A DNA stretch of 56,728 nt from positions 1 through 56,728 of IMG/VR virus record IMGVR_UViG_3300014818_000012. One strand, given 5' to 3'. Positions 1,898-34,100 of the stretch are shown one piece after another. Source of the DNA: a virus (Duplodnaviria > Caudoviricetes). Position 1 is the first letter of the stretch, and the number at the start of each line of letters is the position of its first letter. The notes under the pieces were generated by a model. It saw nothing but the letters and a program-made list of their open reading frames with translations, was not told the origin of the DNA and made no database searches. The position numbers were made by a program, and so were the translations under genes.

Positions 1898-3886
1898 ATG
1901 AAAATTAAAAAAGCTGAACTACTTAGCGCCTTAAAGGCTGACCTAAAAGCTGCAGATGTGCTTAAACGTGATCAAGATGGCGCTATAGCTAAATGGAAAG
2001 CTGAGTACAATGGAGACCCTTATGGTAACGAGAAGAAGGGCAAGTCCGCTATTGTATCTAGGGATATTAAAAAGCAGTCTGAGTGGCAACATGCTACTAT
2101 TGTAGACCCCTTTGTAAGCACTAGTGAAGTTATTAAGTGTGTTCCTATTACCTGGGAAGATGAAGACTCCGCCCGACAAAATGAACTATTACTTAACGCT
2201 CAGTTTTGTCGTAAGTTTGATCGATTCAACTTTATGTCTAAAGCAGTAAAGGTACTTGATCGGGAAGGAACTCTAGTTGTACAAACAGGCTGGGACTACG
2301 AAGATGAAGAAGCTACCACTATAGCAGAAGCAGTAGAGATTACCGCTGAAGGTCTAGAGGTTATTGTAGAGCAAGAAGTTACAGAAACTATAATTAAGAA
2401 AAACCAACCAACAGCTAAAGTATGCCGTAACGAAGATGTCTATATTGACCCTACTTGCCAAGACAACCTAGATAACGCACAGTTCGTTATTCATAGATAT
2501 GAAACAGACTTGTCGTCACTTAAGAAAGATGGACGATACAAAAATTTAGATCAGGTAGCCAAGGTTGGTCGTGAAGACTTTGACTATGAGTCGCCCGATG
2601 ATACTGAATTCAGATTCAGTGACGAACCACGCAAGAAGATGGTGGTTTATGAGTACTGGGGCAACTATGATGTAAATGACGATGGTATTGCTGAGCCTAT
2701 TGTATGTGCTTGGATTAACGATGTAATTATTCGTTTACAGTCAAACCCTTACCCTGACGGAAAGCCTCCGTTTATTGTTGTACCTTTTAATAGTATACCT
2801 TTCCAAATTCACGGTGAAGCTAATGCAGAGTTAATTGGGGACAACCAGAAAGTTAAAACCGCCATAATTCGTGGTATTATCGACAACATGTCCCAGTCAA
2901 ATAATGGACAAGTAGCTATCCGTAAAGGCGCACTAGACCAAGTAAACCGCAAGAAGTTCTTAGCAGGTAACAACTTTGAGTTTAACGGTACCCCTAACGA
3001 CTTCTGGCAAGGCAGCTACAACTCTATTCCTGGTTCAGCTTTCGATATGATTGGTTTAATGAACAACGAAATTGAGTCTATTACAGGAACTAAGTCATTT
3101 AGCGGTGGTATTAACTCAGGAAGCCTGGGAGCTACGGCCACGGGTGCTAGAGGTGCTATGGATGCTACTGCAACAAGACGTATGAACATGGTACGTAATA
3201 TTGCAGAGAACCTAGTTAAACCGCTTATTCGTAAATGGATGTCATATAACTCAGAATTCTTAGAAGACGAAGAAGTAGTACGAGTAACTAATACAGAATT
3301 TGTTCCAGTACGTCGTGACGACTTAGACGGACGAATTGACCTAGATATTAGTATATCTACTGCTGAAGATAACGCAGCTAAATCCCAAGAATTATCCTTC
3401 TTGTTACAGACCTTGGGCCCTAATGAGGACCCTACTATTCGCCGTACGATTATGGCAGATATTATGGAACTTATGCGTATGCCAGACCAAGCTAAGCGTG
3501 TTCGTGACTTCAAACCAGAGCCAGATCCGGTACAGGAACAGTTTAAGAAACTTGAGTTAGAGCGTCTTATTCTTGAGAATGAAAAGGTTAAAGCGGAGAT
3601 TATGGATAGAAAAGCTCGTGCAAACGAAAACACTATTGATGCTCAACTTAAGATGAACAAAGCAGCGGTTGAAGCAGCTAAAGCTCGTAAGTTAACTAGC
3701 GAAGCTGATATGACTGACCTTAGGTTTATTAAAGAAGACGAAGGCTACTCTCACTTAGAACGTGTGGAGTTGGAAGACCTTAAGCATACTCAACGTATGC
3801 AATCAACGTCTCTTAAGCATAAAGCTAACCTTGAACAGATGATGGCTCAGCAGTTAGCTGGCGATACAAATATTGGAGTAATATAA
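1898..3886 (+). CDS. Portal protein (N4-like)
   Basis: 662 aa; IKKQSEWQ, IDPTC, YEYWG and TGTKSFSGG motifs recalled from N4-like portals; precedes scaffold and capsid genes. Confidence 0.9.
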   Translation: MKIKKAELLSALKADLKAADVLKRDQDGAIAKWKAEYNGDPYGNEKKGKSAIVSRDIKKQSEWQHATIVDPFVSTSEVIKCVPITWEDEDSARQNELLLNAQFCRKFDRFNFMSKAVKVLDREGTLVVQTGWDYEDEEATTIAEAVEITAEGLEVIVEQEVTETIIKKNQPTAKVCRNEDVYIDPTCQDNLDNAQFVIHRYETDLSSLKKDGRYKNLDQVAKVGREDFDYESPDDTEFRFSDEPRKKMVVYEYWGNYDVNDDGIAEPIVCAWINDVIIRLQSNPYPDGKPPFIVVPFNSIPFQIHGEANAELIGDNQKVKTAIIRGIIDNMSQSNNGQVAIRKGALDQVNRKKFLAGNNFEFNGTPNDFWQGSYNSIPGSAFDMIGLMNNEIESITGTKSFSGGINSGSLGATATGARGAMDATATRRMNMVRNIAENLVKPLIRKWMSYNSEFLEDEEVVRVTNTEFVPVRRDDLDGRIDLDISISTAEDNAAKSQELSFLLQTLGPNEDPTIRRTIMADIMELMRMPDQAKRVRDFKPEPDPVQEQFKKLELERLILENEKVKAEIMDRKARANENTIDAQLKMNKAAVEAAKARKLTSEADMTDLRFIKEDEGYSHLERVELEDLKHTQRMQSTSLKHKANLEQMMAQQLAGDTNIGVI

Positions 3887-15396: not shown

Positions 15397-16275
15397 ATGG
15401 CAACTATAACCATTACTGATACGCTAGATGTAGCAGAAAAATATGAATTACTAGTTAAGCAATCCTTAGCTGGTAACTCCGCATATATCCGTGCTAAAGA
15501 AACAATACAAGAGCTAGTGGATAGCGGCTCTATTGACGAGACCCAGAAGTCTGAAGTCCTTAGTAGCATACTTGGTGGTATGATTAATAACATAACTAGC
15601 TCTAGTATGAGTACTGCTATGGCGTGGGCTAATTCGGAAAAAGACGTAGCTCTCAAGAAGTTAGAGTTGGCTAAACAGCTAGACATACTAGATCAAGAGC
15701 TAGCACTTAAGACAGCGCAAGTAGCTCAAGTAACTAGTGCAACTCGGTTGAGTAAAGTAGAGTCTAAACGTGTCTACGGAACAGCTGTGTTTGATACCAA
15801 CAACAACATATCTTCCATAGATGCCACTGGTAAGGTAGCTACAGACATCCTACTTGCAGAAGCACAAACAGTTAAGGTAGGCTCAGAAAATACCCTAGTT
15901 ATACAAAAAGTTAAAGAGTCTCATGCGGCTGTCCACAAGATAGTAGCTGACACTTATGTTAACTACGGTAACTACACATATAGTGGTTTGAGTGAGTCAG
16001 GGATATCTACGGTGTCTCCTGGACATGGTGCTTATAAAACCCTTAGTACTACACAGCAGGATATTGCAATTGAGCAAGCTAAAGGCTACACGTATAACGC
16101 ATGGGCAAATGCACTAACAGGGTCTGCTTCCATGCTTGGCACTGCTATTGCCGCAGACCTAGCTTCGTTTGAGCCAGGGGAGACTGGTGATATACTGTTA
16201 AATACTGTACTTGACACCGCCAGAAACCTTAAAGAGGCAAGTACTAGCGTAGACGACGCTACACCGACTTACTAG
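15397..16275 (+). CDS. Virion structural protein, possible gp54-like paralogue
   Basis: Helical 292-aa protein with a similar overall layout and a C-terminal EQAKGY segment. Confidence 0.6.
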   Translation: MATITITDTLDVAEKYELLVKQSLAGNSAYIRAKETIQELVDSGSIDETQKSEVLSSILGGMINNITSSSMSTAMAWANSEKDVALKKLELAKQLDILDQELALKTAQVAQVTSATRLSKVESKRVYGTAVFDTNNNISSIDATGKVATDILLAEAQTVKVGSENTLVIQKVKESHAAVHKIVADTYVNYGNYTYSGLSESGISTVSPGHGAYKTLSTTQQDIAIEQAKGYTYNAWANALTGSASMLGTAIAADLASFEPGETGDILLNTVLDTARNLKEASTSVDDATPTY

Positions 16276-18257: not shown

Positions 18258-18614
18258 ATGAACTGGTTAGACTATAGCAAGAAAAGTAGTTCTGGGGGTA
18301 ATGAGGTTGGTACCAACATTGACGAGTTTGTTAATGGATTTACTACATTTGACTCTTTTAAGGCTCCTGAGGTTATAACGGGAGACTCTGAGGGTTTTGG
18401 CCTTGGTAATCTTTTTAGTGATAAGCACACGATGGGTAATATCACCGGACTTGCAGGTACCCTAGCGCAGCTAGCGTCTCTTCCTCTGATGAAGAAACAG
18501 GCTGAACTAAACAATGAGATTACACAATACAACTTCGATACGACTAAAGAAGAGAACGCAAAGCACGCTAAAAAAGCTGCTAACTTCGCTAGTGCAGGTA
18601 CTAGATATACATAA
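18258..18614 (+). CDS. Small ejection-type virion protein (N4 gp52 position)
   Basis: Gly-rich amphipathic segment followed by a coiled coil; synteny with N4. Confidence 0.65.
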   Translation: MNWLDYSKKSSSGGNEVGTNIDEFVNGFTTFDSFKAPEVITGDSEGFGLGNLFSDKHTMGNITGLAGTLAQLASLPLMKKQAELNNEITQYNFDTTKEENAKHAKKAANFASAGTRYT

Positions 18615-18634
18615 CAAGGTAAAAGGACTAAACA

Positions 18635-20602
18635 ATGGCTCGTAACAACATCTATGCCCCATCCGCCAGCGGAGGGTCCACTAACTGGGCTGCTGGTATT
18701 AGTGGCGCTCTTACTGACTTAAGCAAAAGTTTTCGGGCTCAAGGGGATAGTGAGCTTGAGCGTGACAGATTAGCTGCAAAAGACAAAAAAGAAGAAACTC
18801 GTTATAATGCACAGGAAGCTCGCCTACTTGCCGATCGCAAACTAAAGGCTGACGCCAGAAAAGACTCAAACACCCTAGGTAACCTTAAGGTTAACATAGG
18901 TTTTGGTGATTTAGGCCAAGGCGTGCAAGACAAAGCTTCAAATACCGAAAAGGGTATAGAAAAGCTAGAGGAAGATTATACCACAAACATAGTGGAGTTG
19001 ACTAAGCGACGTGGGGCTATTGATGAAGATGGTAAGCTAAGCCCCTACGGCACTACCCTATTTGATACCTACAAGACTAGCTACTTGGAAGCATTACCTC
19101 CTGCAGAAGCAGAGGCTAAGGCTATGGAAGCTGTGCGTGGTATCCAGTCTGCTGCTAAAGACAACGACTATGACGTTAAAGCTAAAAAACATATAACCTC
19201 AGCACGAGAAGCCCTGGTTAAGGGTAAAGTAGGCGCTACTGCTAATGCTACTGTGCAGGAATTTGTAGAGGCTGGGCAACGACAGCTGGAGAGTGCAGGT
19301 CATGCTAACCCTTTCTCTGCTGAGGTGCGCGCTGACCTAGCTAACAGAGCCAAGATCCTAGGCCTTCGTACTGGTGGTGAGTACCGCACTGCGGATGTTA
19401 CAGCCAATAAAGCTGCTTATGATAATGCCTACCAAAAAGAAAAAGACCGTATATCATACTTAAAAGACTACTACAGTGCTAGTAAGTCAGCTGGTAGAAG
19501 CACGGACGGTAGTTACAAAGGTGCAACTGCTAAGGATTGGGCTGAGTTTACTAGCAACCTGGATGCTTTCGGTACTGGCGATAAAGATAGGGCCAACACC
19601 TTGTTTTCTGAGGTAAGGAGCGCTCATTCTAACCTGCCTGCAGGTTTCATAAGAGAAGCTATTATGGCCAGATCTGGGGGTAAGTTCTGGGATGCCGAGA
19701 CGCCAGCCTCTACGAAAGCAGAGATTAAAGCCATTGGTAAGATGGCTACGTCTCTTGGTACTGGTACAGGACCCACAGTAAATAAGGATGCCTTTAAAAT
19801 AAATGAGGCCAAATTAGCTGAGCTGAAGCCATCCAACTCGTTGGCAGGCAGACTTAACTTAAGGACCCCTAAGTTTACTGGTAAGTTGTCAGACATACCG
19901 GATGCAAAAAAATTAATCCAGGGTCTTGCGAAGGCTAAAGAAGAGATTAAGAAGGCAGCAGTAGTCCAAACTACTAAGGACGTACAGCAAGCTAAGGAGT
20001 ACCTAGATAAGCCTACGAATACTAGGGCTCAGAGGTTCAGGACACTTTCTCCAGAAGTACAGCAGGAGGTGGCTAAACTTGTTGGCGGACCTAAACTTAT
20101 TGATGACACTACATCACCGTATGCGGATAGTCCGCTATTAGTAGGGGATGTACAGCCCAGTAGTAGTAGTAGTGCCCCATTAGACGCCACCACTAGGTCA
20201 GCAGCACGTGCTGAGCGTAAAAAAGAAGATAGAAGTGTGCTGGATACTATAAGTAGCGCACCACTAGTGCCTAAGTTGTCTGTACAACCTAGTATCCTTA
20301 CCCAACCTAAGTTGTCTGAATACATCCGTAGGCCTAGCGTTTACAACAACAGGGCCACCTTAGATGCCCAAGCCGCAGCTATCAATGCTAAGAATGATAG
20401 AATAAGTGGAGGTAAGCAGCCAATAGGCACACAGTTAGTTCCTAATCTGCCCGGTACCAGCAACAGACCACCACAGATAGACATAGAAAACGCTAACGAG
20501 CGGATGGCTAAGGTACTAGCAAATATGGAAAAACTGAAAAGTAAGGCTAACTCCCCTAGTCAGGTAAGAGAAGACGGCTACATACACAAAGGAATAAACT
20601 AG
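18635..20602 (+). CDS. Internal virion/ejection protein (N4 gp51 position)
   Basis: 655 aa, A/K-rich, no Cys seen, directly upstream of vRNAP. Confidence 0.7.
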   Translation: MARNNIYAPSASGGSTNWAAGISGALTDLSKSFRAQGDSELERDRLAAKDKKEETRYNAQEARLLADRKLKADARKDSNTLGNLKVNIGFGDLGQGVQDKASNTEKGIEKLEEDYTTNIVELTKRRGAIDEDGKLSPYGTTLFDTYKTSYLEALPPAEAEAKAMEAVRGIQSAAKDNDYDVKAKKHITSAREALVKGKVGATANATVQEFVEAGQRQLESAGHANPFSAEVRADLANRAKILGLRTGGEYRTADVTANKAAYDNAYQKEKDRISYLKDYYSASKSAGRSTDGSYKGATAKDWAEFTSNLDAFGTGDKDRANTLFSEVRSAHSNLPAGFIREAIMARSGGKFWDAETPASTKAEIKAIGKMATSLGTGTGPTVNKDAFKINEAKLAELKPSNSLAGRLNLRTPKFTGKLSDIPDAKKLIQGLAKAKEEIKKAAVVQTTKDVQQAKEYLDKPTNTRAQRFRTLSPEVQQEVAKLVGGPKLIDDTTSPYADSPLLVGDVQPSSSSSAPLDATTRSAARAERKKEDRSVLDTISSAPLVPKLSVQPSILTQPKLSEYIRRPSVYNNRATLDAQAAAINAKNDRISGGKQPIGTQLVPNLPGTSNRPPQIDIENANERMAKVLANMEKLKSKANSPSQVREDGYIHKGIN

Positions 20603-20718
20603 GTAACTCCCACCTTGACCACATGGATGTGGGGTAGGTAGCAAGAATGAGTGTAAAGTATACTGCAGGTATGTTAAAATACTTGCAGTATATTTATTCT
20701 TTTAAGGCATCCCTATCT

Positions 20719-23700
20719 ATGAACAACTCTTTTGATGACACTAGCTACCAACCAGACACTACCGACCTAACGACTGGTGTTAGTATAGACACTCCAGATA
20801 CTACTCCTTATGAAGCACCTACTCCTTATGAAGCACCTAGTGCTTATGATACCTTCCTAGAAGAGAAATCCACTTACAGTCAAGAAGACCAAGATGCCCT
20901 TTATGGGGACATTGAAGGTTTCCTTGGTGACAGTACCCAGAGTAAAGCAGAGGCCCTGGCCATACGTAAGGCGGAAAAGCTTAAGCATCTTGGGGAACAG
21001 TCCCAGTTTAGTAGCTTATCCTCATCTTACACTGAATTAGATGATGGCACACTCGAAAGTAACGCCAATAAGATTTGGAATGACCTATCTGGCGCGGAGT
21101 ACACATCCTTATATGACTTTGCAGTAGAGGACCTTTCTTTAGGTGTTGATGATCAGGGTTATTTTTATAAAGGCAGTGGTGAACGTTATGAAGGGCCTGT
21201 AAGACGCAGTTACGGCTATAACACCAAAACTAGTGACGAAGCTTACAAGTTTGGGGTTGCTCGAGGCGACAGAGCCAGTTCTGACACTCGTTATACCGAC
21301 TATGAGGTTGGTGCGGACGGGGTAGACATAAACAAAAAGCAACATGATATACTTCTACCAGAGTACATAGCTAATACCCTTGAGGCTCTCGGACACGGCA
21401 GAAAAGAAGCGCTTAAAGGCAGACTAGTTCCAGACGCCCTAGATATTGAAAACTACGATAGGTTTGGTGGCGGTGCTACTGAGTACTACAAGTCTAAAAA
21501 TGCTTTTTTTGGAGACCCAACAGCAGAGAACTACGGTACGTCTTTAGACAGTTCTGCGGCAAAAGAATTGCTGTACAACTACGCTACTGAGTATACTACG
21601 CCTAGTAAGTACTATAGAGGACAATACTCTGATGATAAGTACATGGATGCTTACTATGGGAACATAGCAGAAGACGCTGCGCAAGAGCGTTATGAAAACC
21701 AAACAGTTTTAGACGAAGCTCTTCAAGTACTATCCGGATTTCCTGCAGGTGTAGCAAAAGGTGCCTTAGAGCTGTTAGATGCGGCTCAAGAGGCGGTTAC
21801 CTACTTGCCACAACTGGCTGCACGGGTAGCTACTGGGAACAGCGCCCTTGATATTGATCTATTTGATGATGGGTACAAAAAAGCTATTATAGAGTTTACC
21901 GACGATTTGGTAGGGTATGACCGTAAACTGGATGAGGTAACACTATCCAAGGCTACAGAAGAACTCACAGCCGCTGGAGTAGACATTACTAGCTGGGAAA
22001 GTATTAAATCAGCCATCTCTGACCCCGAAAAACGAGCACATTTAGGCGCTGCTGCATGGAAATTACTATCTGATCCGTCTTTGACAGTTTCTATGGTAAC
22101 TGAAATGATAGGCTCTGGTGGTGCATTAGGTGCCATTACTAAGACGGCCTCTAAAGTTACCTCTAAAGTTGGCTCTAAGGCAGTACTTGACGCACAGAAA
22201 GCAGTTAGTGGTGTGCTAAAAAGTAACCTAGACAACCTAAAAACTAATGTTGCAGCTGCTAACAGTGCAGGCGACCTAGTGAAGGTAGCGGAACTTCAAA
22301 AGAACTACAATATCCTCCAAAAAGTACCGGATCTACTCAAAGGTAGTGTGTACACTAATGCCGATATGATGGTTCGAATGAACAAGGATATTACCGCATT
22401 TAAAGAAAACAATGAGGGCTCACCCCCTAATACTGCTAAACTACTGCAGATAGCACTAGCTAATCGCGTTGTGTCTACAGCGGAAGTTATGTCCCTAAAG
22501 TCACTAGTTGGGATTAAAGATGTGCCGGCTAGAGTTCTTAAAGAAGCCGCTAAGAAAGGTGTTATTAAGGCTTCTGGTGAAGCTGTTGGTAGACTGACTA
22601 AGAATGGCCTTATGGAAGGTAGTCAAGAGACTCTTGACAGTATCGTTGAACAAATTAACCAGAAACTAGACACCACTAGATTCGAAGGGAAAACCCTTCC
22701 GGACGTGCTCAGTGAGGCCAGTGCGGAAATACTTACTGGCACCTTTGCTGGTATGGCCGGTGGTGTGCAGATCGGTACAGGGAAACTAGCTCTAGATACC
22801 GTTGGGGCTATCACTAAAAAACCTCTAGGTAGTCTAGGTAAGAAAGTACTGAAAAAAGGTGCTAAAGCAGTTCCTGCCCCAGCCACTGACCTTTCCGAAG
22901 AAGACCTAGCGGTAGTCGTAGGTACTGCTGATAAGACAGCTAATTCCACAGTTGGTAAGTATAGTGCTATGTTTGGTGACGAAGAAGTCGCTAAGCTACT
23001 AGTTAATGAAGACTTAGAAACAGAGCAAGAGATACCTACCCCAGAACTAGACACAGCGTTAGAAGAGGCGGTTAGTACAGAAAGTACCTACGCAGACATG
23101 ATTTCTGAAATTGAGGCTGCTGAAGTTGTACTTGAGGATCGACAGGCTACACCCCGTAAAAAAGATACGGATGGTATCGCATTAAAAATGCTTAGAAAAG
23201 CTAAAGCGCAAGCAGCTATACGTATCATAGAAAGTGAAGAACTGCCGGTATTAGGTTCGGGATACAGCCCAGAAGACTTAGTGGACGACTTTATAGACGC
23301 AAAAACTGACGTCTCAGGCAACCTGGATATCACAGAAGAAGAAAAAGCTAAAGTTAATACATTCCTTAAAAAGAATGGACAGAAGCCGTTCCGTTTTGAA
23401 CGAGTGCAGGCACGCCTGTCAGGTAAGGATGCTGCAGCAGTTTACGAAGAATCTATGGGTACAAGTGCTAACAGTGCTCCTAGCCGTCGTGCACGCCTTA
23501 GACGTCTTGTAAACACCCCAGGAGTAAACAAGGCACTAATAAGTAAAGAGCTAGGGCAGATTAACAACTTCTTAACTACCCAGTTAAACCGTAGAACGCA
23601 GTATAGTGTTACGGAAAAAGAAGTCCAAAAAGACATAGATGCGTACAACAACCGTAAAAGCACTGCGGGTAAAGATGTAGGTGCCCCTAAGAGTAGGGCG

Positions 23701-26700
23701 GTAGATGGCTTACCTAACAACGAGATAATCGTTGAGGTAGGTAGTGATGGTAAATATAAAATAGCAAAACCTTCACGCGCAATCTTAGACTCCTTAGATG
23801 ACACTATTGACCATCTACAGACCACACTAGCCCGTTACAACAAAGCTACTGCTAAAGTGCTAGGGGTAAGCTCCTCTACCACTATTGATGTACCAGCCTC
23901 TACTAGTGTAAATAAATCTATACAAAAAGCTAGGGAAGCGGACACGAAATACTATGACAGTGTAAAGCCTACCAAGGTTATTGTTGATAATGGCACCAGC
24001 AGTAAGCAGTGGCAAAAAGGTGGTGACTACCATAGCTTAAATGAGACTAAAATAGTAGGGCCTAAGGAGTTTACTGCCGATGACGTAGTGCTACTGACCA
24101 CCCTAGATATAAAAGCGGGGAGCTCTGCGAGTAGACGACTAGCTGCGGCAATTGCTGCTGGTGCCACTATTGTAGTTGATCGTCAGTTGAAAAAGGGTAA
24201 TGGTAAAGCTATAAACACTCTTGCTAAGGCTTATAATGCAGGTGCAGTAACTGTAGAAGGTAAGTCTGTATGGAGGCCTATAGCAGAAGCTACTGAAATT
24301 AGAGCCGCTGCAGCTGTAGTAAAAAAAGAAGAGAATAAAAAAGCTCTTATTTTATCAAACTTGGTTAAAGCTTTTGACCAGATGTTTATAGAAAAAGGAA
24401 ATGCTAGTACCACGCAGAAAGAAAATGCCACCAAAGCGCAAGAGGCTGCTATAGAGTATTTTAAAGGGGATGCTAAAAAGCTAAATGACTATGTCCTTAA
24501 TACTATAAGAAAAGAGGCAGAGGCATTAGAGGTTATCCTTGATGACATTGTACTAAAAGAAGGTAGAGACTCTAAGGAGTACTCAGAGGCAGTAGGGAAG
24601 GCAACAGCTTCCGCCTACCTACTAGTAGAGAAAAAGGTTAAAGCTAATGAAGAAAGGCTCAGCAAAGGAAGTAGTCGTATTAAGGAATGGAAAAACGCTG
24701 CAGAAGTTGCTAAAAAAGGTGGTGAGACTTTAGTAGCATGGGTTAAAAAGGTATTTGGGGACGAATCTCGCAGTATTGCTATTACCGCTATTAAGAACTC
24801 CCTAGGGAAAGATAAGGCAGGTAAGACAATCTATTCTTACTGGTCAGAAGAACGTAGCGACTATGTTACTACAACTATGCTCAAAGAGGTAGAGGCGTTC
24901 TCCACGGATGGTACCTACACTATTATTGAAGTAGATCCTGATAACTACGTGGAAGTACGTGAAGCTACTGTACTTAATACATTAAGTGTAGAAGACCTGA
25001 AGGTGGAAGGTCTGGATGGTTTCGTATTTAACAGCTTTGTAGAAGACGCTGTGGAGGAGATGGGTAAGGCGATAAGTAGTGAAACTGATAAAGAGACTAT
25101 TTTACCTTTTAGTATAATAAATAGTTCAGCAGTTGGTCTACTCTATGATAAAGATAAAAAGCTCAACCCTAACTTAGCCGTAGCAGCTAAGGCAGCATTA
25201 TACAATTTTATAAAACATAACCAGTATTTACTAAGTAAAGATAGTAAAACCCTAGAGGATATCGCCCAGATTCTAGGGAAGCACCCTTCTGAGTTGTCCA
25301 AATCAGCTATTACAGCTATGCAAGATAATGGCCTCCTTCTTAAGATGGTCGCAGACAGTATGGGTAAAGAGATACTAGCTCTTATGGGTATGTCGCGTAA
25401 GAACACACCTGGAGTGGACTTACAGGCGTTTAGTGCCCTGACTACTGGATTAGGACAAGCAGCTGTCCTTATGGGTGTTAGTGAGGGACTACTTAACGAG
25501 ACATCCATGGGCAGTGTTGATTTTGCCAAAAATGTGCTAGGCAAAAAGGTAGAAGACACAACTGGCAGTACGTCAAAGGTAAACTTCGTAGAGCTAACTA
25601 CTGACTCTGCCGCTATTGAGGAAGTTATCTTAGCTGCAGATATCCTAGCGGATATCCTTCCGGGCTTGGATACTACCAGAAAAGAGCCGTTATTTAGTAA
25701 ACCAAATCATAAAGTGAAAAGTAAGGCTACTAAGGGAATTAAAAAGGAGCGCTTAGGACTTAACCTAGCTGCAGATTCTGTATCAGCAATGGAAAAGCTA
25801 ATGGACACGGAAATGGTCGCAGATATGACTTTAGTACGCTTCTTGATAGCTCCTGAGAATAAGGACCGTGCCTTGGCCCTACTAGGGCACATAGCCTTAG
25901 ACAGTGACGCATTTATGAACCTAAGCTACAAGGAGCAGCAAGTACAAGGTTCTAAAAATCGTGCTCTAGAGAACGCTATGGCCCACATGGAATGGTTGGA
26001 CACAACATCTGCAGGTGACGCTAAGGTGTCTATGTGGTTTAACTACTTCTTCTCAAAGAATGGTCGTTTCTTTATTGATAGTAATACTATTAACCCACAA
26101 ACAGATAAGCACTTCGCTAGATTCTTTGTTCAACCTAAAGACCATAATAACACGTACACAAAGTCAAAAGATGGGTCATTTAAGGTAGAGGGTAAAGATG
26201 TAACTAGTCTTGTTCATTATGCCTTAGCCCAGGCATTTGGTCTCGCTACTGATAAGTTGGGGGATCCTAAAATTGAGGCTTTCAGCAAAAAAATAATTAA
26301 GTCTATTAACAGTATGGCTAAGTTAAACAAGTACAGAGAAGAGTTTTTGACTACTGGGAAAGTAGAATCCCTAGGTATTGAGTTAGAGCACTTTGGTCAC
26401 GCTTTACAGGCTTTTGCCTTTTTGGAGAATACAATTAAGGCTAAAGGGAAACCTTTTGATAGTGCTATTAGTGCTGAGTTCGATGCGGTAACAAGTGGTT
26501 TTGCTCTAAAGCTACTACAAATGCCTATTATCGGAACCCTAACGAAAAAGTTACCTAGTGCTATGATAGAGTGGCTTGATAAGGTAGGTATTGTTATTAA
26601 CAGTTCAAGGTACCTAGATAAATTAGGGGATAAGACACCACTAAGTATGAACAACCTACTAGACACTAAAGGGTTTTTGGACAGTTATCAGTTCTTGGCT

Positions 26701-28179
26701 TCTAGTATTAAACCTACAGCTTATAAAAAACTGAAAAGTAGCTCTAACTCTCCACTACTTACTGATGAAGGATATCCAAAAGCCTTGTGGCAGGCAGTAT
26801 CTAAAGTGTTACCTAGCGTAGATCCGGGAGAGGCTGTGGACTCTTCACTACGTAGCTTGTTTAAAAGCCCTTTCATGACGTTTAACTACGCTGCTTCTAT
26901 CAAGTCTATTAGAACTAGGTTAAAAACTACTATGACGGACGAGGTGGCCGCTAAAATAGCCAAGCTAGATCTTAGTGCGGTGGAACAAGAGCCTGAAAAT
27001 GCTGCCTTAATAACCATGCTTACTGCGTATGTTGGTAATACCACAAGTAAAACAGCAGAAGAAGTGCAAAATATTATTGAAGATATACAGCAAAAAGTCC
27101 GTATATCAGACATTAATACCGTAAAGGTGGGTAAAGGGGCATCCCTAGGCCACTACTTAGAGTTAATGATTGATGCGTCTTATGGTAAACAGGTTGAAGA
27201 GGTATTAACAGCGAAGTTTAAACCATTCGTAGCAGCTCAAGATATTGTTAATGATAGTTTTAAAGCTATGTTTGAGGTGTTTGACATAGCCTTCCAGGAA
27301 AAGTTACTAGCTGCTAGACAGAATGGACCTGTCTCGGCGGTACAAGAAAAAGAGCTATATGAGTCATTGAAGAACCAGTGGCCTGCAATTAAGGGCCCAC
27401 TCAGTAACATGGAAGAAGAGTTTTCCGGTACAGGGGATATTGGGGTGTACAGTTTAGACACTGCTTCACCTTATGGGGTATTTGCTGGCCGTAAAGCTTC
27501 ACAAGTTACAAGAGGGGCTAGCAACAGAACAAGCAAAACTGGTAAGACTTTAACCACTTCTCATATGATCAAAAAGATAAGTGCAGCCATTAGTGCAGGC
27601 GCAGTTATCCCTATACATTATATTGATGGTGCTGTTATGGCCAAAACTGTACTAAACCATGATGGAAGCATACTGACCATACATGATGCTATAATACCTA
27701 GCTTAACTAAAATGTCTGAAGGACAAAAGGCCTATAACAAAGCCACGGTAGACGTGAGTATGGACTACAGCTTTATTAATGAGATAATGAAAAGCCTAGA
27801 TAGGGTTATTGAAAACACGGAGTTATTTGGTGAAGTAGGAAACCCTACAGTATACCAAAAAGCCCAAGTGGCTATAGACCGCACCACCAGCAGTAGTGCG
27901 AGTAGCTACATTATAAGTGTTAGAAACCAGATGGCAGGTTTAGCTAATACTGTTAATGCAGCACGTAAAGAGTTAGCATCGGCACTTAATGAAGGTGCGT
28001 CTATTATGCATATGGCGGGTACGTCTGAAGGTGTCCACACCATTGATGATACTAACAAGGTTGCCTACAAGGAAATTGACACTTACAAGCAAATAGCCGA
28101 TAATGTCCTTACACCATTGACGGAAGATGGTAAGTCTGTTACTGCCCTTATGGAAGACGCTGCAAATATCTGCAAATAA
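20719..28179 (+). CDS. Virion RNA polymerase, N-terminal and catalytic part (N4 gp50-like single-subunit RNAP)
   Basis: NGRF..INPQTDK; motif A EFDAVTSG; motif B RSLFKSPFMTFNY; motif C IHDA. ATG 20719 has a TAAGG RBS; the ORF is open from 20647. Confidence 0.92.
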   Translation: MNNSFDDTSYQPDTTDLTTGVSIDTPDTTPYEAPTPYEAPSAYDTFLEEKSTYSQEDQDALYGDIEGFLGDSTQSKAEALAIRKAEKLKHLGEQSQFSSLSSSYTELDDGTLESNANKIWNDLSGAEYTSLYDFAVEDLSLGVDDQGYFYKGSGERYEGPVRRSYGYNTKTSDEAYKFGVARGDRASSDTRYTDYEVGADGVDINKKQHDILLPEYIANTLEALGHGRKEALKGRLVPDALDIENYDRFGGGATEYYKSKNAFFGDPTAENYGTSLDSSAAKELLYNYATEYTTPSKYYRGQYSDDKYMDAYYGNIAEDAAQERYENQTVLDEALQVLSGFPAGVAKGALELLDAAQEAVTYLPQLAARVATGNSALDIDLFDDGYKKAIIEFTDDLVGYDRKLDEVTLSKATEELTAAGVDITSWESIKSAISDPEKRAHLGAAAWKLLSDPSLTVSMVTEMIGSGGALGAITKTASKVTSKVGSKAVLDAQKAVSGVLKSNLDNLKTNVAAANSAGDLVKVAELQKNYNILQKVPDLLKGSVYTNADMMVRMNKDITAFKENNEGSPPNTAKLLQIALANRVVSTAEVMSLKSLVGIKDVPARVLKEAAKKGVIKASGEAVGRLTKNGLMEGSQETLDSIVEQINQKLDTTRFEGKTLPDVLSEASAEILTGTFAGMAGGVQIGTGKLALDTVGAITKKPLGSLGKKVLKKGAKAVPAPATDLSEEDLAVVVGTADKTANSTVGKYSAMFGDEEVAKLLVNEDLETEQEIPTPELDTALEEAVSTESTYADMISEIEAAEVVLEDRQATPRKKDTDGIALKMLRKAKAQAAIRIIESEELPVLGSGYSPEDLVDDFIDAKTDVSGNLDITEEEKAKVNTFLKKNGQKPFRFERVQARLSGKDAAAVYEESMGTSANSAPSRRARLRRLVNTPGVNKALISKELGQINNFLTTQLNRRTQYSVTEKEVQKDIDAYNNRKSTAGKDVGAPKSRAVDGLPNNEIIVEVGSDGKYKIAKPSRAILDSLDDTIDHLQTTLARYNKATAKVLGVSSSTTIDVPASTSVNKSIQKAREADTKYYDSVKPTKVIVDNGTSSKQWQKGGDYHSLNETKIVGPKEFTADDVVLLTTLDIKAGSSASRRLAAAIAAGATIVVDRQLKKGNGKAINTLAKAYNAGAVTVEGKSVWRPIAEATEIRAAAAVVKKEENKKALILSNLVKAFDQMFIEKGNASTTQKENATKAQEAAIEYFKGDAKKLNDYVLNTIRKEAEALEVILDDIVLKEGRDSKEYSEAVGKATASAYLLVEKKVKANEERLSKGSSRIKEWKNAAEVAKKGGETLVAWVKKVFGDESRSIAITAIKNSLGKDKAGKTIYSYWSEERSDYVTTTMLKEVEAFSTDGTYTIIEVDPDNYVEVREATVLNTLSVEDLKVEGLDGFVFNSFVEDAVEEMGKAISSETDKETILPFSIINSSAVGLLYDKDKKLNPNLAVAAKAALYNFIKHNQYLLSKDSKTLEDIAQILGKHPSELSKSAITAMQDNGLLLKMVADSMGKEILALMGMSRKNTPGVDLQAFSALTTGLGQAAVLMGVSEGLLNETSMGSVDFAKNVLGKKVEDTTGSTSKVNFVELTTDSAAIEEVILAADILADILPGLDTTRKEPLFSKPNHKVKSKATKGIKKERLGLNLAADSVSAMEKLMDTEMVADMTLVRFLIAPENKDRALALLGHIALDSDAFMNLSYKEQQVQGSKNRALENAMAHMEWLDTTSAGDAKVSMWFNYFFSKNGRFFIDSNTINPQTDKHFARFFVQPKDHNNTYTKSKDGSFKVEGKDVTSLVHYALAQAFGLATDKLGDPKIEAFSKKIIKSINSMAKLNKYREEFLTTGKVESLGIELEHFGHALQAFAFLENTIKAKGKPFDSAISAEFDAVTSGFALKLLQMPIIGTLTKKLPSAMIEWLDKVGIVINSSRYLDKLGDKTPLSMNNLLDTKGFLDSYQFLASSIKPTAYKKLKSSSNSPLLTDEGYPKALWQAVSKVLPSVDPGEAVDSSLRSLFKSPFMTFNYAASIKSIRTRLKTTMTDEVAAKIAKLDLSAVEQEPENAALITMLTAYVGNTTSKTAEEVQNIIEDIQQKVRISDINTVKVGKGASLGHYLELMIDASYGKQVEEVLTAKFKPFVAAQDIVNDSFKAMFEVFDIAFQEKLLAARQNGPVSAVQEKELYESLKNQWPAIKGPLSNMEEEFSGTGDIGVYSLDTASPYGVFAGRKASQVTRGASNRTSKTGKTLTTSHMIKKISAAISAGAVIPIHYIDGAVMAKTVLNHDGSILTIHDAIIPSLTKMSEGQKAYNKATVDVSMDYSFINEIMKSLDRVIENTELFGEVGNPTVYQKAQVAIDRTTSSSASSYIISVRNQMAGLANTVNAARKELASALNEGASIMHMAGTSEGVHTIDDTNKVAYKEIDTYKQIADNVLTPLTEDGKSVTALMEDAANICK
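20803..20849 (+). repeat. 18-nt coding tandem repeat (TPYEAP x2 plus a partial copy)
   Basis: ACTCCTTATGAAGCACCT twice, then AGTGCTTATGA. Confidence 0.85.
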
Positions 28180-28194
28180 TACTAGGAAATATTT

Positions 28195-31100
28195 ATGACA
28201 AGTTGTACAAGCCCGAAGTTCCTTTTGGCGCAAGTGGAAGAACAAATTAGTATGCACGAGGTTCTTGCAGCAGACGATACCTTACAGGACGTGGACAGTA
28301 CTCCGCCATCGGAAACTCTGGATGAATTATACCTTGTGAGAAAAGCCTTACAGAAGGCAGAGCACGATCTAGTGCAGTCTCATGGTAAGTATAAACTTAG
28401 CTTGAAAGAGAAAAGTGACGCCGCTACTACAGCGTTTAAAAAAACGTTTGGTGCGGCCTTTAGCTTTACCCAAGGTACCGGTAACAAAGCTAGGGAAGGG
28501 TTGTTTAACAAAGCAGAAGTGGTGGATGGGGGAGTAAGAATTACCTTCACTCACGCAAAGAAAGTTAAAAGCTATACTTTTTCTTTGACTAGTGGGTCCC
28601 GTAGCACTAATAAAGGTAACACGTTTATTAATGTTGCAGGGTTCCGAGAGTTCCTGGATAACTATTTTCTTGAGCAAGATGCCATGAAAGCTTTACCAGA
28701 TATTTTTGGTAGTGAGCCTGGGGCAACACTTAATACAGATGACAAAAACCTAGAGGCGGACTACGTACATGGTGATGTAAAAAGTATGAGGGCAATGCTT
28801 AAAAAACTACACGTTATGGGTGGTGAGAAAGCCAGTGAAGCTGAACTAGACGAACACCTAGCTCTTGTAGATAAGATGGATCCTACGTTTTTCGAGTCTT
28901 TAAAGTTATATATAGAGGCTGAAGCTGATCGCTCTAATGGCGTAGTCAGTGCTAAGGCTATGAATATAAAGATAAAAGGCGCCCCAGCATCAATAGGGAA
29001 TCAACAGTCAGAAGCGTCTATTTACTTGGAAGAAGTAGTCCATTCAATGACTACTGCAGCTATAACCTCTAAAACTAAGAAGTCTGTCGCCCTTAAACGG
29101 CAGCTAGATCACTTAATAGAGTTGGGACGTGCACAGCTTACGTGGGAAGACTTTTTACCTCCTAGCAGCGAGTCTATTGACCCTGCAGTAGAAGAAGCCT
29201 ACGCGAAAAAGCTTTATAGCTACATATTTAACGCTGAAAATGCAGACTATGAATTCTTAGCTAAGGGTGTTGCACAGCCTTTAGTAGCTAAAGCATTATC
29301 AACAGTGCAGGTACGGGATAGGGGTGAAGTTAAAAGTATTCTTGAAAAGCTACAAATGTTTTTTTCTACTGTCATAGATATATTACTAGGCAATATTTCC
29401 GCTAAGAATAAAGATAGTAACGTAAAAGATGCCTTAATTTCTTTAGCCTATGAGCTTGGGGCTATTAACACCAAGAAAAGTCAAAAGTTGTTAGAGGCGC
29501 CTGGGTTCTTAGGAAGAGTTTATGACATTGTATTTAATGACACTGACAGAGTTGTTGCTGATGCTGTACATAAGGTAACTAAAAAAACTTTTGGCAAAGC
29601 TGCAGCTAAAGCATACCAACCTATGCCAGAAGACCTGTATGGCCGTGTAAAGTGGATGAGCAACAACATAAGGTTGTCCTTAGTAAACCCTACATATACT
29701 AAAGTAATGGGGGCATTGGCTAGCTCTTATGGCTTACGCCCAGACGGTACTGTACGTGAAATTGTTTCAGGACTCTTTGAGACTGAACCTGTACAGAAGA
29801 TAGCTGAATTTTTAGTACTACAAGCCGGTTACGTAGATAAGCAGCGTAACAACCAGGTAGGTATCACTAGAGATAGCGTACTTTCTATGTTTACAGAAGC
29901 TCCTACCAGAGAAGAGGAAGAAGCCCTAACGGAAATCTTAGCTGACACTGACCTAGCCTCGTTATTTGGTATGGCATCAAGTGCATCTGATAACAACTTA
30001 GTAGGTAAAAGGGTTTTTGACAACGCCACTGTACGGAAAATATTGACAGACGAAGACACACTAGACAAGTTTATTGCTGAAGCAAAACGAGCCTTAAGAG
30101 ACCTAGATCCCGCACACTATAACTGGCATACCAACCAAGCTGCTGGCCTGGGTATATACATGGCTAAGCACCAAGGTACTCCTGCACAAAACTTTAATGC
30201 AGAAAATATTGTTAAGGGTATTCACAGTGCCCATAGTAAGCAAGCTAATAAAAATACAGTGAGAGCTGTAGATGAGTTAGCTACGCTAGTCGCTATAAAG
30301 TATAGCGATGTAGGAGCACGTAACACTACAGCTGCCTTAATGAAGAAAGATTGGACAGGCGTACAGCACGTAGCCGATGTGGTTAAAGGGTTTAGTGCTA
30401 ACTCTAATGAAACAGTCTTTAAAGGTAAGAAAACTAACAAGATAAAAGGTTACAGCAGAGAAATTTACGACGATTCTATTATCGTGGAAACAGCCCTTCT
30501 AGAAGACCGAGAGGCTATGGAAGCCCAAGGATTTACCTTTAGGGGTAAGCTTTCTGCTAGGATAGGAGACGGTAGTAGAAAACCTATGGCTTTATACGTA
30601 ACTGATAGTATTAGTCGACCAGAACGATTACGTGGTGGGTTACGTTTAAACCAACTTAGAAGTAAAGGTACTACCGTTAGTTCTGCAGCTTACAAGCAAG
30701 GTGAAGGTTTTAGTAACAGCGTGATTAGAGAAAGATCTAAACGTGATATTAATGAGTTACAGAGAATAGCTACTGTTGACGCTAAAAAGATGGAGTCAGG
30801 AGAATTTACATTTAAAGATAGTATGTTTGGCGTATCCCCTATCATAAACGAAGACGGGAAAGTAGTTGACTACCGTTACATGATGGATAAAGAAACGAAG
30901 ACAAATATCCTTAAGCCAGATAGACGTATATCAGAAGTTATGGGTAGATCTTTTGGTAGTTTACTAGATAAAGAAATGAGTGCTGCACATAATGCAACTG
31001 TGTTAGAAACTATGAAAGAGGATATGGTACGTAGCTGGGAAAGTGGAAGCAAAGGAAAAGATGGACTAACAGACTTCACATTAGTTGGCCCTAACGTAGC

Positions 31101-32514
31101 TGACCCAGAAATGCGTAAGATGTACTACATGCTGCCTAGGGAGTTCCATGAGTTTATTAATTCTCGTGAAGATAAAACTTTGGCGGTACGCACTAGTTTA
31201 AAGAATGCCTACTTTGGGTACACCCAGTTGTCTATTACAGATTTTCCTGGGCTAAAATATATTACACCTAAGGTGGTGAGGAAAATTTTACGTGTCGCGG
31301 AAGTTATCTGGATGGAATTAGTACAGATAGCCAAAACAAATATCTTAATGAAAATGCCTACGGTTACTGTCAGTAACTTTATTTCTAACACAGTGTACTT
31401 ATTATCTAAAGGGTATAACCCTGTAGAAGTAATAACAATGCAGTTAGAGAGTTTTAAAGAGATTAAGAGTTATAACAAGCATACTAAAAGACTCCAAGCA
31501 TTGCAAAATAGAGAAGGGGAGATTGTTGCTGCTCTTACAAGGGACATGCTATCAAGTGCAAAACGTAAGGAGCTGTTAGCTGAAGAACGTAAGATAACTA
31601 TGCAATTGGGACGAAAGGACTTAAAACCTGCACGACGAGAAGAGTTGCTAAGACAAGATGGTAGAGTAAAAAAGGCTATTGTAGCTGATTCTACTATGGA
31701 TAAGAGAAAAAAAGCACTTAGCGTAGAGTTGAGTAGAGTAAAAGGGGAAGCTGCTAAGTTACGTGTTAGTATTAAAGATAGTCGTATAAATGAGTTAGTT
31801 GAGTTAGGTTTGGATCAGAGTGTAGAGGATATAACCTCTAATGTTGTGAGGGACACTAATAGAGTTAGCGAGTTTTTTGATAGTAAACTTGAAAAAGTTC
31901 CTACGGTGATACGTACGGGGGTAGATTACTTGTTTTTAACAAAACGTACTGTGCCTTACAAAGTGGTAAATGAGTTTTTAGAAATTACGGATTTGATGTC
32001 TAGGGATATTCAGAATACTTTTGAACAGCGTACTGAAGAAAAGCAGGTGAGAGGCAAGGAAAAACTACCTCGTTGGTGGTTGGATAAGCAGAAAGATGGG
32101 TACTTAGCTACGCAGACCTTAACAGGCGCAGAGCGTACAGCTTTCTTAAAAGAAGCAAAAAAGGTAAGGCACTATGATCTAGTTGAAGATTATATTAACT
32201 ATGCATTACCATCATCTAGCTTCGAGGAATACTTGAATAAAGTAGGTATTTTAATGTTTACTAAATACGTTAAACGTATTCAGCGTATTATTGTAAAAGC
32301 AGGTAGTAAAGGCCCTATAAAAGCTATAGTGACCCTAATGCTAGTAAGTATAGCGGCTGGACTACCCACTATTCATGAGCAGTCCTTTTTAGCTAAGGAG
32401 TGGTACACAAGCTCTATAGGGTTTGGAAATGTATTTCCAGTGTACGCCCCTACAGATATTTTGCTTAATGTATTTACCCCATCATTACTGAAAGAGTCTA
32501 CGTATCAGTTTTAA
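28195..32514 (+). CDS. Virion RNA polymerase C-terminal part encoded as a separate gene
   Basis: Zincin-like LEEVVH...EFLA segment and C-terminal YINY...YLNKVGILMF resemble the N4-like vRNAP C-terminal region; own AGGAA RBS. Confidence 0.8.
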   Translation: MTSCTSPKFLLAQVEEQISMHEVLAADDTLQDVDSTPPSETLDELYLVRKALQKAEHDLVQSHGKYKLSLKEKSDAATTAFKKTFGAAFSFTQGTGNKAREGLFNKAEVVDGGVRITFTHAKKVKSYTFSLTSGSRSTNKGNTFINVAGFREFLDNYFLEQDAMKALPDIFGSEPGATLNTDDKNLEADYVHGDVKSMRAMLKKLHVMGGEKASEAELDEHLALVDKMDPTFFESLKLYIEAEADRSNGVVSAKAMNIKIKGAPASIGNQQSEASIYLEEVVHSMTTAAITSKTKKSVALKRQLDHLIELGRAQLTWEDFLPPSSESIDPAVEEAYAKKLYSYIFNAENADYEFLAKGVAQPLVAKALSTVQVRDRGEVKSILEKLQMFFSTVIDILLGNISAKNKDSNVKDALISLAYELGAINTKKSQKLLEAPGFLGRVYDIVFNDTDRVVADAVHKVTKKTFGKAAAKAYQPMPEDLYGRVKWMSNNIRLSLVNPTYTKVMGALASSYGLRPDGTVREIVSGLFETEPVQKIAEFLVLQAGYVDKQRNNQVGITRDSVLSMFTEAPTREEEEALTEILADTDLASLFGMASSASDNNLVGKRVFDNATVRKILTDEDTLDKFIAEAKRALRDLDPAHYNWHTNQAAGLGIYMAKHQGTPAQNFNAENIVKGIHSAHSKQANKNTVRAVDELATLVAIKYSDVGARNTTAALMKKDWTGVQHVADVVKGFSANSNETVFKGKKTNKIKGYSREIYDDSIIVETALLEDREAMEAQGFTFRGKLSARIGDGSRKPMALYVTDSISRPERLRGGLRLNQLRSKGTTVSSAAYKQGEGFSNSVIRERSKRDINELQRIATVDAKKMESGEFTFKDSMFGVSPIINEDGKVVDYRYMMDKETKTNILKPDRRISEVMGRSFGSLLDKEMSAAHNATVLETMKEDMVRSWESGSKGKDGLTDFTLVGPNVADPEMRKMYYMLPREFHEFINSREDKTLAVRTSLKNAYFGYTQLSITDFPGLKYITPKVVRKILRVAEVIWMELVQIAKTNILMKMPTVTVSNFISNTVYLLSKGYNPVEVITMQLESFKEIKSYNKHTKRLQALQNREGEIVAALTRDMLSSAKRKELLAEERKITMQLGRKDLKPARREELLRQDGRVKKAIVADSTMDKRKKALSVELSRVKGEAAKLRVSIKDSRINELVELGLDQSVEDITSNVVRDTNRVSEFFDSKLEKVPTVIRTGVDYLFLTKRTVPYKVVNEFLEITDLMSRDIQNTFEQRTEEKQVRGKEKLPRWWLDKQKDGYLATQTLTGAERTAFLKEAKKVRHYDLVEDYINYALPSSSFEEYLNKVGILMFTKYVKRIQRIIVKAGSKGPIKAIVTLMLVSIAAGLPTIHEQSFLAKEWYTSSIGFGNVFPVYAPTDILLNVFTPSLLKESTYQF

Positions 32515-33293: not shown

Positions 33294-33514
33294 TGGTTAC
33301 ACCCCTTACTATAGAATATAGTTAGCACGCTTAGTAGACTTACTTCCTCGGCAGTAAGTACATCTTTCGATAACAGCCCATATATATGGTCTCCAGCTTC
33401 TTGCCGTAAAGAGACTCCAGTAGAGTCTTTTTTGCAAGTAGTTACTGCTGCAGCCTCAGTTAGGCCTGAAAGGGACCCTAGCATACCGTCAAATAGTGTT
33501 TCTTGATTAGGCAT
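33281..33514 (-). CDS. Hypothetical protein (77 aa)
   Basis: GAGGAG RBS; overlaps both neighbours. Confidence 0.65.
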   Translation of the reverse strand: MPNQETLFDGMLGSLSGLTEAAAVTTCKKDSTGVSLRQEAGDHIYGLLSKDVLTAEEVSLLSVLTIFYSKGCNQCTP

Positions 33515-34100
33515 CTGCTTCTCCTCTTATGTAACTAACACGATTTTCCCAACGGTCTGCTACTTCATCAGTGCCCATCCAAAGGTCAGTACCTTCAATG
33601 ACTTTACTCATCTCGTCGTCCGTAAGGAAACCCGAGTAGAAAGATGTAAATGCGTTGTTTAAGTGGTCGTCAGTAAACTTTTGTCGTGCTTTCATTTCAT
33701 GACCTTTTCCTGCCATGCCTCCTGAGTAGTTATGTATCATAAAAGACAAGTGCTGGCTGGCCACTACATCGTCACACGCCATAGATATTAAGGTGCCTGC
33801 TGATGCTACGGTACCAGATAGCTGCGCCACTACTCTAGCTTTGGAATTGCTAATAGCATTAGTGAGCATAAACGCAGAGTCTATGATACCCCCAGGAGTA
33901 TTGATATATAGGGTAACCTCTGTATCAGCACTAGCGGCTATAAGTAGATGACACAGCTCATTGTACATACAAGGTTCATCAATAGACCCAGTTAGGTACG
34001 CTTTAATTGTTTTTTCTTTAGCATCAACGACTATAGGGACAACAAGGTCCCAAATACGTGTAGGCTCTTTAGGTAGGTCGAAAAGTGATAAGTCTGACAT
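33507..34100 (-). CDS. ClpP-like serine protease
   Basis: INTPGG, ASAG (Ser), FMIH (His) and DLWM (Asp) motifs. Confidence 0.88.
   Translation of the reverse strand: MSDLSLFDLPKEPTRIWDLVVPIVVDAKEKTIKAYLTGSIDEPCMYNELCHLLIAASADTEVTLYINTPGGIIDSAFMLTNAISNSKARVVAQLSGTVASAGTLISMACDDVVASQHLSFMIHNYSGGMAGKGHEMKARQKFTDDHLNNAFTSFYSGFLTDDEMSKVIEGTDLWMGTDEVADRWENRVSYIRGEADA

Follow-up and report, generated by a model that had tools for sequence, protein, structure and literature searches.

What might hold together a virion RNA polymerase that is encoded by two genes and has to leave the virion through the phage tail? The question is raised by a 56,728-nucleotide stretch of viral DNA (Duplodnaviria; Caudoviricetes; IMG/VR record IMGVR_UViG_3300014818_000012, positions 1 to 56,728; hereafter the window, meaning the whole stretch), in which a predicted virion RNA polymerase (vRNAP) of the phage N4 type is encoded by two adjacent genes, and in which the only cysteine (Cys) of each product lies at the end that faces the other. 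The reading that we favor, at a probability of roughly 0.65, is that the terminal Cys pair would form a head-to-tail interchain disulfide, restoring the 'string' of the polymerase so that it can be ejected via the tail. That the two Cys couple the pieces physically, by one means or another, is a broader claim and a highly probable one.

Piece 1 (20647-28179, + strand), which would comprise the N-terminal domain (NTD) and the T7-like RNA polymerase (RNAP) core, is 2510 amino acids (aa) long when counted from the first ATG, and piece 2 (28195-32514, +), the C-terminal domain (CTD), has 1439 aa; both rest on open reading frame (ORF) calls and on the profile matches given below. The sole Cys of piece 1 is residue 2509, the penultimate residue (...ANICK, then the stop), with its TGC codon at 28171-28173 (+), and the sole Cys of piece 2 is residue 4 (MTSC...), with its TGT codon at 28204-28206 (+). 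A sequence-only reading of the locus had placed the two Cys in this way, and a computed count agrees; the ~2,490 aa that it gave for piece 1 is start-dependent, as the first ATG yields 2510 aa and the database call for a 98%-identical protein gives 2500 aa. Direct reading also bears out its description of genes 15 nucleotides (nt) apart, the second with its own ribosome-binding site: at 28177-28185 (+), the stop codon TAA (28177-28179) is followed by TAC and by a second in-frame stop, TAG (28183-28185), and a Shine-Dalgarno sequence, AGGA (28184-28187, +), lies 7 nt 5' of the piece 2 ATG. Read from the piece 1 stop through the 15-nt spacer (28180-28194), the junction is TAA tac TAG gaa ata ttt ATG. 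The two pieces are in the same frame, and the two in-frame stops that part them make simple read-through unlikely.

The scarcity of Cys in the pair is as striking as its placement. The remaining genes of the window encode 116 Cys in 14,013 residues (0.83%), from which ~33 would be expected in the 3,949 aa of both pieces, against the 2 observed. For one randomly placed Cys per protein, simple arithmetic gives P ~1e-5 that both would lie within 6 residues of the facing terminus.

Where the polymerase is cut

The profile PHROG 2206, 'virion RNA polymerase', is matched by piece 1 over positions 49-1976 of 3406 (E = 2e-64) and by piece 2 over positions 2346-3177 (E = 2e-116), while Pfam holds no family for either piece. 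A hidden Markov model (HMM) built from 24 fused vRNAPs, N4 gp50 included, was used to map the cut. Residues 348-2491 of piece 1 correspond to states 125-1883 of this model (E = 1e-146), the match ending at ~N4 residue 2118, 19 residues before the end of the piece, and piece 2 is matched from its residue 48, ~N4 residue 2161, over states 1913-3107 (E = 4e-227). By these matches, both ORFs are pieces of an N4-type (Schitoviridae, N4 gp50 family) vRNAP in a split variant, and the cut maps in or beside the linker between RNAP core and CTD, N4 gp50 residues 2102-2123. The vRNAP gene of the window is thus read as having undergone gene fission at this flexible linker. Many columns of the RNAP core are invariant, for instance H2346-D2347-A2348 in 25 N-terminal pieces. 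A complex prediction in which residues 2100-2510 of piece 1 and 1-500 of piece 2 were supplied with separate alignments scored 0.01, which is no verdict and counts neither way on binding.

The N4 protein provides the structural frame for this cut. A 2026 cryo-EM account likens gp50 to beads on a string, the flexible linkers being residues 907-1007 and 2102-2123; the latter, 23 residues that are invisible in the structure, joins the RNAP core to the CTD, which autoinhibits the RNAP through a weak interface, and the protein must cross a tail channel of ~35 Å with the NTD leading (PMC13434306). The window pair is homologous to gp50 over NTD, RNAP core and CTD, gp50 likewise being packaged, ejected through the tail and Cys-avoiding. 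Members of the gp50 family are typically single polypeptides of ~3,000-4,000 aa that lack Cys, and the sequence-only reading was right to describe the N4 protein as a single Cys-free chain of ~3,500 aa (3500 aa, 0 Cys). In the window, however, the chain is cut at the linker between RNAP and CTD into two ORFs that are Cys-free except for one Cys apiece, at the cut ends. Among vRNAP homologues, Cys makes up 0.00075% of residues, versus 0.865% proteome-wide (PMC11445570).

Within the phage collection, the junction region resembles only that of the Alteromonas phages AD45-P1 to AD45-P4 (51% identity), and no cultured relative of the window is closer than AD45 (51-63% aa identity). The vRNAP region of AD45-P1 carries the annotation 'potential frameshift', but actually consists of a 2495-aa ORF and a 1409-aa ORF, 7 nt apart and in different frames, with the sole Cys of each piece in ...SKHCKQ, before the stop, and in MTIC.... 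In this phage the stop codon has been re-sequenced and both polypeptides have been seen on gels, at 270 and 175 kDa (Garcia-Heredia et al. 2013, PMC3821669). ORF127/ORF126 of AD45-P1 to AD45-P4 therefore share both the split site and the terminal Cys pair with the window, whose phage is a distinct and more divergent member. In the portion of the AD45 paper available, no pairing or disulfide is offered, and the CTD is reported, citing Kazmierczak 2002, as necessary for encapsidation (PMC3821669). A 2023 survey considers separated vRNAPs rare and puts them down to gene-calling mistakes or read-through (PMC10654107).

Cysteines at the ends made by fission

If the Cys pair matters for the split, it should accompany the split in other phages, and it does so almost without fail. 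Among the best 120 of 158 matches to the N-terminal piece, 116 are separate pieces of 1726-2751 aa, all 116 with a Cys in the last 6 residues, and four are fused forms (3141-3628 aa), none with a terminal Cys. This Cys is the sole one in 112 of the 116 N-terminal pieces, and lies 1 (n = 25), 2 (n = 50), 3 (n = 27), 4 (n = 13) or 6 (n = 1) residues from the C-terminus. The C2509 column is invariant in an alignment of 25 N-terminal pieces that share 23-58% identity. Four N-terminal pieces (P0114, P0119, P0121 and P0130) have a second Cys at a similar position, 172-175 residues before the end.

The same holds for the C-terminal pieces. A single C-terminal piece used as query found no close relative in the viral contig collection, and alignment queries were needed. 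A near-length search gave 21 matches, 19 of which have a Cys at residue 2-5; of the other two, one starts inside the protein and has no Cys, and one, of the other split class described below, has a Cys at residue 6. In a wider search with the CTD against 1.84 billion representatives, most of the best 150 of 1,275 matches are C-terminal pieces that start M-x-C, and these 150 include more than 140 clusters, at 50% identity, of split vRNAPs. In 50 aligned C-terminal pieces, neither M1 nor C4 varies.

Pooling the CTD-bearing proteins of at least 1150 aa gave 203 unique sequences, of which four (P0022, P0240, P0210 and P0239) were dropped as fragments or unclear, P0210 being a copy, cut at its 5' end, of a Cys-free fused protein of 3078 aa. 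In the 199 that remain, a Cys is found in the first 8 residues of 141 of the 144 proteins split between RNAP and CTD (137 of the 144 have exactly one Cys), of all 7 proteins split between NTD and RNAP, and of none of the 48 fused proteins, 43 of which are entirely Cys-free (in the 48 together, 23 Cys in 168,842 residues). Taken together, the two split classes thus have the Cys in 148 of 151 CTD-bearing pieces; in 133 of these 148 it is at residue 3 or 4. Overall, the Cys stand 1-7 residues from the cut end of each piece, amid near-total avoidance of Cys. The co-occurrence of terminal Cys pair and split on which the sequence-only reading depended is borne out by these counts, and split homologues without the terminal Cys did not arise in the survey, save for three CTD-bearing pieces taken up below. 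Some fused proteins do contain Cys: P0283 (3339 aa) has 12 and that of locus L044 (3350-16534, 4394 aa) has 5, and P0270 and P0285 each have a CxxxxC pair ~250 residues from the C-terminus.

Junctions were examined on the DNA in 106 IMG/VR loci. Wherever both ends were on one contig, Cys occur on both sides (23 of 23 junctions, namely 19 distinct adjacent junctions, the window and AD45-P1 included, and 4 non-adjacent ones). The adjacent junctions use all three relative frames, with a TAATG overlap in 8 loci and an 11-nt overlap in L010 and L025, and their Cys codons are 7-30 nt apart.

The terminal-Cys rule recurs at three different cut sites. In two loci the polymerase is in three pieces, the middle one with a Cys at both ends. 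In the case of L009 (983-13783), the pieces are of 2497 aa (Cys at -2), 408 aa (Cys at 3 and -2) and 1356 aa (Cys at 3), and in the case of L027 (84-13585), of 2478+ aa (Cys at -2), 644 aa (Cys at 6 and -2) and 1378 aa (Cys at 4). Neither middle piece matches the fused-vRNAP HMM, and the one of L009 resembles N-terminal extensions of some long C-terminal pieces. The other cut falls between NTD and RNAP, and maps with the same HMM into the N4 linker 907-1007. In L038, L042 and L049, an NTD piece of 836-845 aa ends ...ECK or ...KCK and a piece with RNAP and CTD, of 2338-2409 aa, starts MGSKTC... or MGSKAC..., and in L107 the facing ends read ...GCALK and MALKDC.... Of 10 homologues of the NTD piece in the database, some as distant as 26% identity, 9 have a sole Cys, at -2, and the tenth is 3'-truncated.

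Genes of this class are not adjacent: 1.8-3.5 kb and two to five other genes separate them. The intervening genes are unrelated (L038 7629-9432 and L042 7162-9540, each with proteins of 434-638 aa and 116-121 aa; L107 5931-9201, five genes), so the pieces are not translationally coupled, and since the Cys pair is kept in genes so far apart, the constraint appears to act on the proteins and not on the mRNA. Neither the middle pieces nor the genes that intervene between split genes gave anything but 'unknown function' when scanned against PHROG. A further protein of 741-751 aa (PHROG 2220, unknown function), encoded four genes 5' of the NTD piece, starts MASC or MPTC, with the Cys at residue 4 (L038 1206-3431; L042 648-2885; L049 521-2776); no partner Cys for it was seen in these three loci.

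The split has also arisen or been lost repeatedly. On an unrooted FastTree of the CTD (HMM columns 2000-3100, 199 rows), the state changes between split and fused at least 11 times. Fused, Cys-free proteins are nested among split ones with supports of 98-100 (P0116/P0198, P0250/P0237, P0209/P0206, and P0138 with L013/P0197), and the corresponding linkers in fused relatives are long, rich in K, E, P and T, and Cys-free. An independent-pairs test (treekit) found 9 split/fused pairs on supported branches, in which Cys changes in the same direction in a mean of 8.4 and in the opposite direction never (sign test, median p = 0.008).

A single ancestral event would seem to be suggested by the fact that most forms split between RNAP and CTD sit in one large part of this tree. 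That the Cys are a product of chance, or a neutral relic of one ancestor of the split lineage, is nevertheless contradicted, and is the least credible of the explanations considered here, given that the Cys stay invariant while their flanks diverge to 23-30% identity, that none of the 9 independent contrasts runs the opposite way, that two other cut sites follow the same rule, and that the family otherwise purges Cys almost completely (PMC11445570).

What the facing cysteines may do

The facing ends are suggestive of a covalent link between the pieces. The C-terminus of piece 1 would be disulfide-bonded to the N-terminus of piece 2, which would restore a 'beads-on-a-string' chain with hardly any branching. 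The two pieces would enter the virion together and, with the N-terminus leading, would be drawn one after the other through the tail channel of ~35 Å, a single Cys per end avoiding wrong cross-links. Since the Cys lie so near the termini (1-4 residues in 115 of 116 N-terminal pieces), the side stubs of the joined chain would be minimal, as would suit the passage of a thread through a narrow channel. Within the virion, the disulfide would form after the exit from the reducing cytoplasm, and it would be reduced in the next host, parting the RNAP-bearing piece from the CTD, the domain that is autoinhibitory in N4; more speculatively, reduction could also lift the inhibition of the RNAP by the CTD.

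The head-to-tail link, first proposed in the sequence-only reading, gains support from the other cut sites that obey the same rule, from the middle pieces with Cys at both ends, and from the persistence of the pair in non-adjacent genes, results that suit none of the rivals. A disulfide, inferred here in preference to some other thiol-mediated bridge, would account for the one Cys per cut end, for the facing pairs at the extreme termini in a family that purges Cys, for the cuts falling in flexible linkers and for a pairing that is independent of gene adjacency. The timing of the bond, ejection as one thread and reductive release in the cytoplasm are proposed together with it.

Known two-chain systems offer points of comparison. 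In AB toxins, of which diphtheria toxin is one, two chains are kept together by a single interchain disulfide while they cross a membrane, and reduction in the cytosol frees the enzymatic chain. Disulfide-linked two-chain proteins that are translocated have one unpaired Cys per chain, facing the other chain, and this is what is found in the split vRNAP, which would work like AB toxins if a disulfide is indeed formed. There is no sequence or structural relation between the two, and whereas the toxin chains derive from one precursor nicked by a protease, the split vRNAP is made from two genes, its bond would be head-to-tail at the extreme termini, and its cargo is a polymerase delivered through a tail. 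Split inteins offer another likeness, being two gene products with a junction Cys that form one functional chain. As a candidate, a split intein was rejected, as only 0-5 residues lie beyond the Cys of the N-terminal piece and 1-6 before that of the C-terminal piece, leaving no room for fragments of ~100 aa and ~35 aa.

Several points weigh against a disulfide. The bond itself is argued from sequence evidence, and the sole gel reported for a split vRNAP shows two separate bands, reduction of the sample not being stated in the available portion of the paper (PMC3821669). Virions assemble in the reducing cytoplasm, so the bond would have to form after assembly or lysis. One Cys per end permits wrong pairings, such as that of one N-terminal piece with another, and specificity would need a non-covalent pre-association. 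The literature holds that Cys must be absent for ejection; the AD45 authors, noting that N4 vRNAP has no Cys, concluded from the Cys in the large ORF (ORF127) that this piece 'will not be injected' (PMC3821669). The tree is a quick and unrooted one, on which fission (a gain) is indistinguishable from re-fusion (a loss).

There are also breaks and pieces without Cys. Of the 151 split CTD-bearing pieces, three (P0189, P0213 and P0257) lack an N-terminal Cys; these are singleton clusters that begin 8-50 residues later than their relatives, and it is possible that their starts were miscalled. In Shigella phage pSb-1 (L004 3194-13982), the vRNAP is annotated as three coding sequences (gp101-103) with 0 Cys. 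Further genes in that record, for instance those for the tape measure and an RNA polymerase, are fragmented too, which suggests sequence errors in the record. Locus L023 has an in-frame stop (1105-1110) within a conserved RNAP-core motif (...PIHFIDGA-stop-MGS...), with no Cys on either side, for which an assembly error, a pseudogene and stop-codon recoding are all conceivable, and L107 has a frame change inside subdomain C2 of the CTD (15675-15721, 23-47 nt overlap), again with no Cys, that may be assembly-made or programmed. These three breaks would be counter-examples if real; none is at a linker, and they look like errors or pseudogenes.

The rival that survives best keeps the pieces joined but changes the chemistry: the thiolates could be bridged by a metal ion or by other thiol chemistry, for instance in a Zn site with the HExxH motif of CTD subdomain C1, so that the junction would not be redox-cleavable in the same way. 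Paired, terminal and invariant Cys indicate that thiols matter and leave the chemistry unspecified, and the motif lies ~280 residues into the C-terminal piece (alignment; PMC13434306). The motif is intact in only 41 of 50 aligned C-terminal pieces, however, versus Cys in 50 of 50. Its first His or another residue is missing in the other 9, and in the window it reads EEVVH (29029-29043, piece 2 residues 279-283). In addition, the cut between NTD and RNAP, which is ~1,100 residues away from C1, follows the Cys rule, as do the middle pieces with their Cys at each end, and a metal ion would be poorly bound by two thiolates and nothing else. We consider such a bridge unlikely; its specific form, a Zn(His2Cys2) staple through the HExxH of the CTD, was set aside, the motif not being general and the window having EEVVH.

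Slightly less likely still is that each terminal Cys acts alone and the pieces are not joined, the Cys serving in contact with another virion component, as a site of terminal modification or as a stability signal. The N-terminal Cys (MASC/MPTC) of the PHROG 2220 protein in the L038 class shows that such a Cys can occur outside the polymerase. Independent roles, however, do not predict the accounting of one Cys per cut end: Cys are in facing pairs at 23 of 23 junctions, only middle pieces have them at both ends, none is found at the true N-terminus of piece 1 or the true C-terminus of the last piece, and fused forms need none.

Alternatively, the Cys codons could be an mRNA signal by which one chain is made through recoding, be it read-through, frameshifting or a ribosome hop like that of T4 gene 60 between the Cys codons. 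Such a mechanism would be in keeping with the position of the Cys codons, one shortly 5' of the stop and the other shortly 3' of the start that follows, with 7-30 nt between them where the genes are adjacent, and read-through has been proposed for the 'rare' separated vRNAPs (PMC10654107). Yet four loci keep the pair in genes 1.8-3.5 kb apart with others between, which excludes hopping or read-through, and among the remaining junctions frames, overlaps and distances vary. The upstream Cys codon adjoins the stop in only 25 of 116 N-terminal pieces, whereas an ATG 1-6 codons 5' of the C-terminal piece's Cys is invariant; the window has its two in-frame stops and a ribosome-binding site for the second gene; and AD45 virions contain two polypeptides (PMC3821669). 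Recoding is contradicted by these observations and is given very little credence.

Genomic setting and implications for N4-like phages

The split vRNAP sits among genes for portal, major head protein and tail proteins, the genes of an N4-like phage. Directly upstream of piece 1, at 18258-20602 (+), are two ORFs of 118 and 655 aa with 0 Cys each, which by position and size may correspond to the N4 ejection proteins gp52 and gp51; neither matched PHROG or Pfam. A sigma-70-like site (TTGACA-17-GATAAT, 11 of 12 positions, a consensus match only) lies at 28076-28104 (+), inside the end of piece 1 and ~90 nt 5' of the piece 2 start. Just 3' of the vRNAP, on the opposite strand, is a gene for a ClpP-like protease (33507-34100, -), which is in the same relative place in AD45-P1 (L001 14216-14809). 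Among the 20 window ORFs scanned against PHROG and Pfam, a part of the genome, there were no redox enzymes, sulfhydryl oxidase included.

The split in AD45 and the suppression of Cys in vRNAPs are already published. We did not find in print the rule of one Cys per fission end, its breadth, its recurrence at three linkers and in independent lineages, or the three-piece forms; no publication was found that describes a terminal Cys pair or a disulfide in a split vRNAP, supplementary material lying outside that search.

A wider proposal is advanced tentatively, with the odds somewhat against it: Cys-stitched fission might be a recurrent and reversible device in ejected phage proteins, whereby any inter-domain linker could be replaced by a terminal Cys-Cys bond that would preserve a single thread during packaging and passage down the tail and that the reducing cytoplasm of the host then breaks, freeing the RNAP from an autoinhibitory CTD or from a membrane-anchored NTD. 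The bond would then be more than the repair of a split, acting as a redox switch that times early transcription.

Suppression of Cys is a hallmark of schitovirus ejection proteins and is usually explained by their passage through tail and periplasm. The exception described here is precise, conserved and convergent, with exactly one Cys at every end made by fission. For annotation, it means that split vRNAPs are common and are not sequencing errors, and that the terminal Cys tells true fissions from accidental breaks. If the disulfide is real, these phages would provide natural evidence that the polymerase passes as one linear thread and that the continuity of this thread matters, and would show that an ejected protein can carry a Cys provided that the Cys stands at a chain end. 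It would also offer a simple experimental way into how, and in what order, proteins are ejected by N4-like phages.

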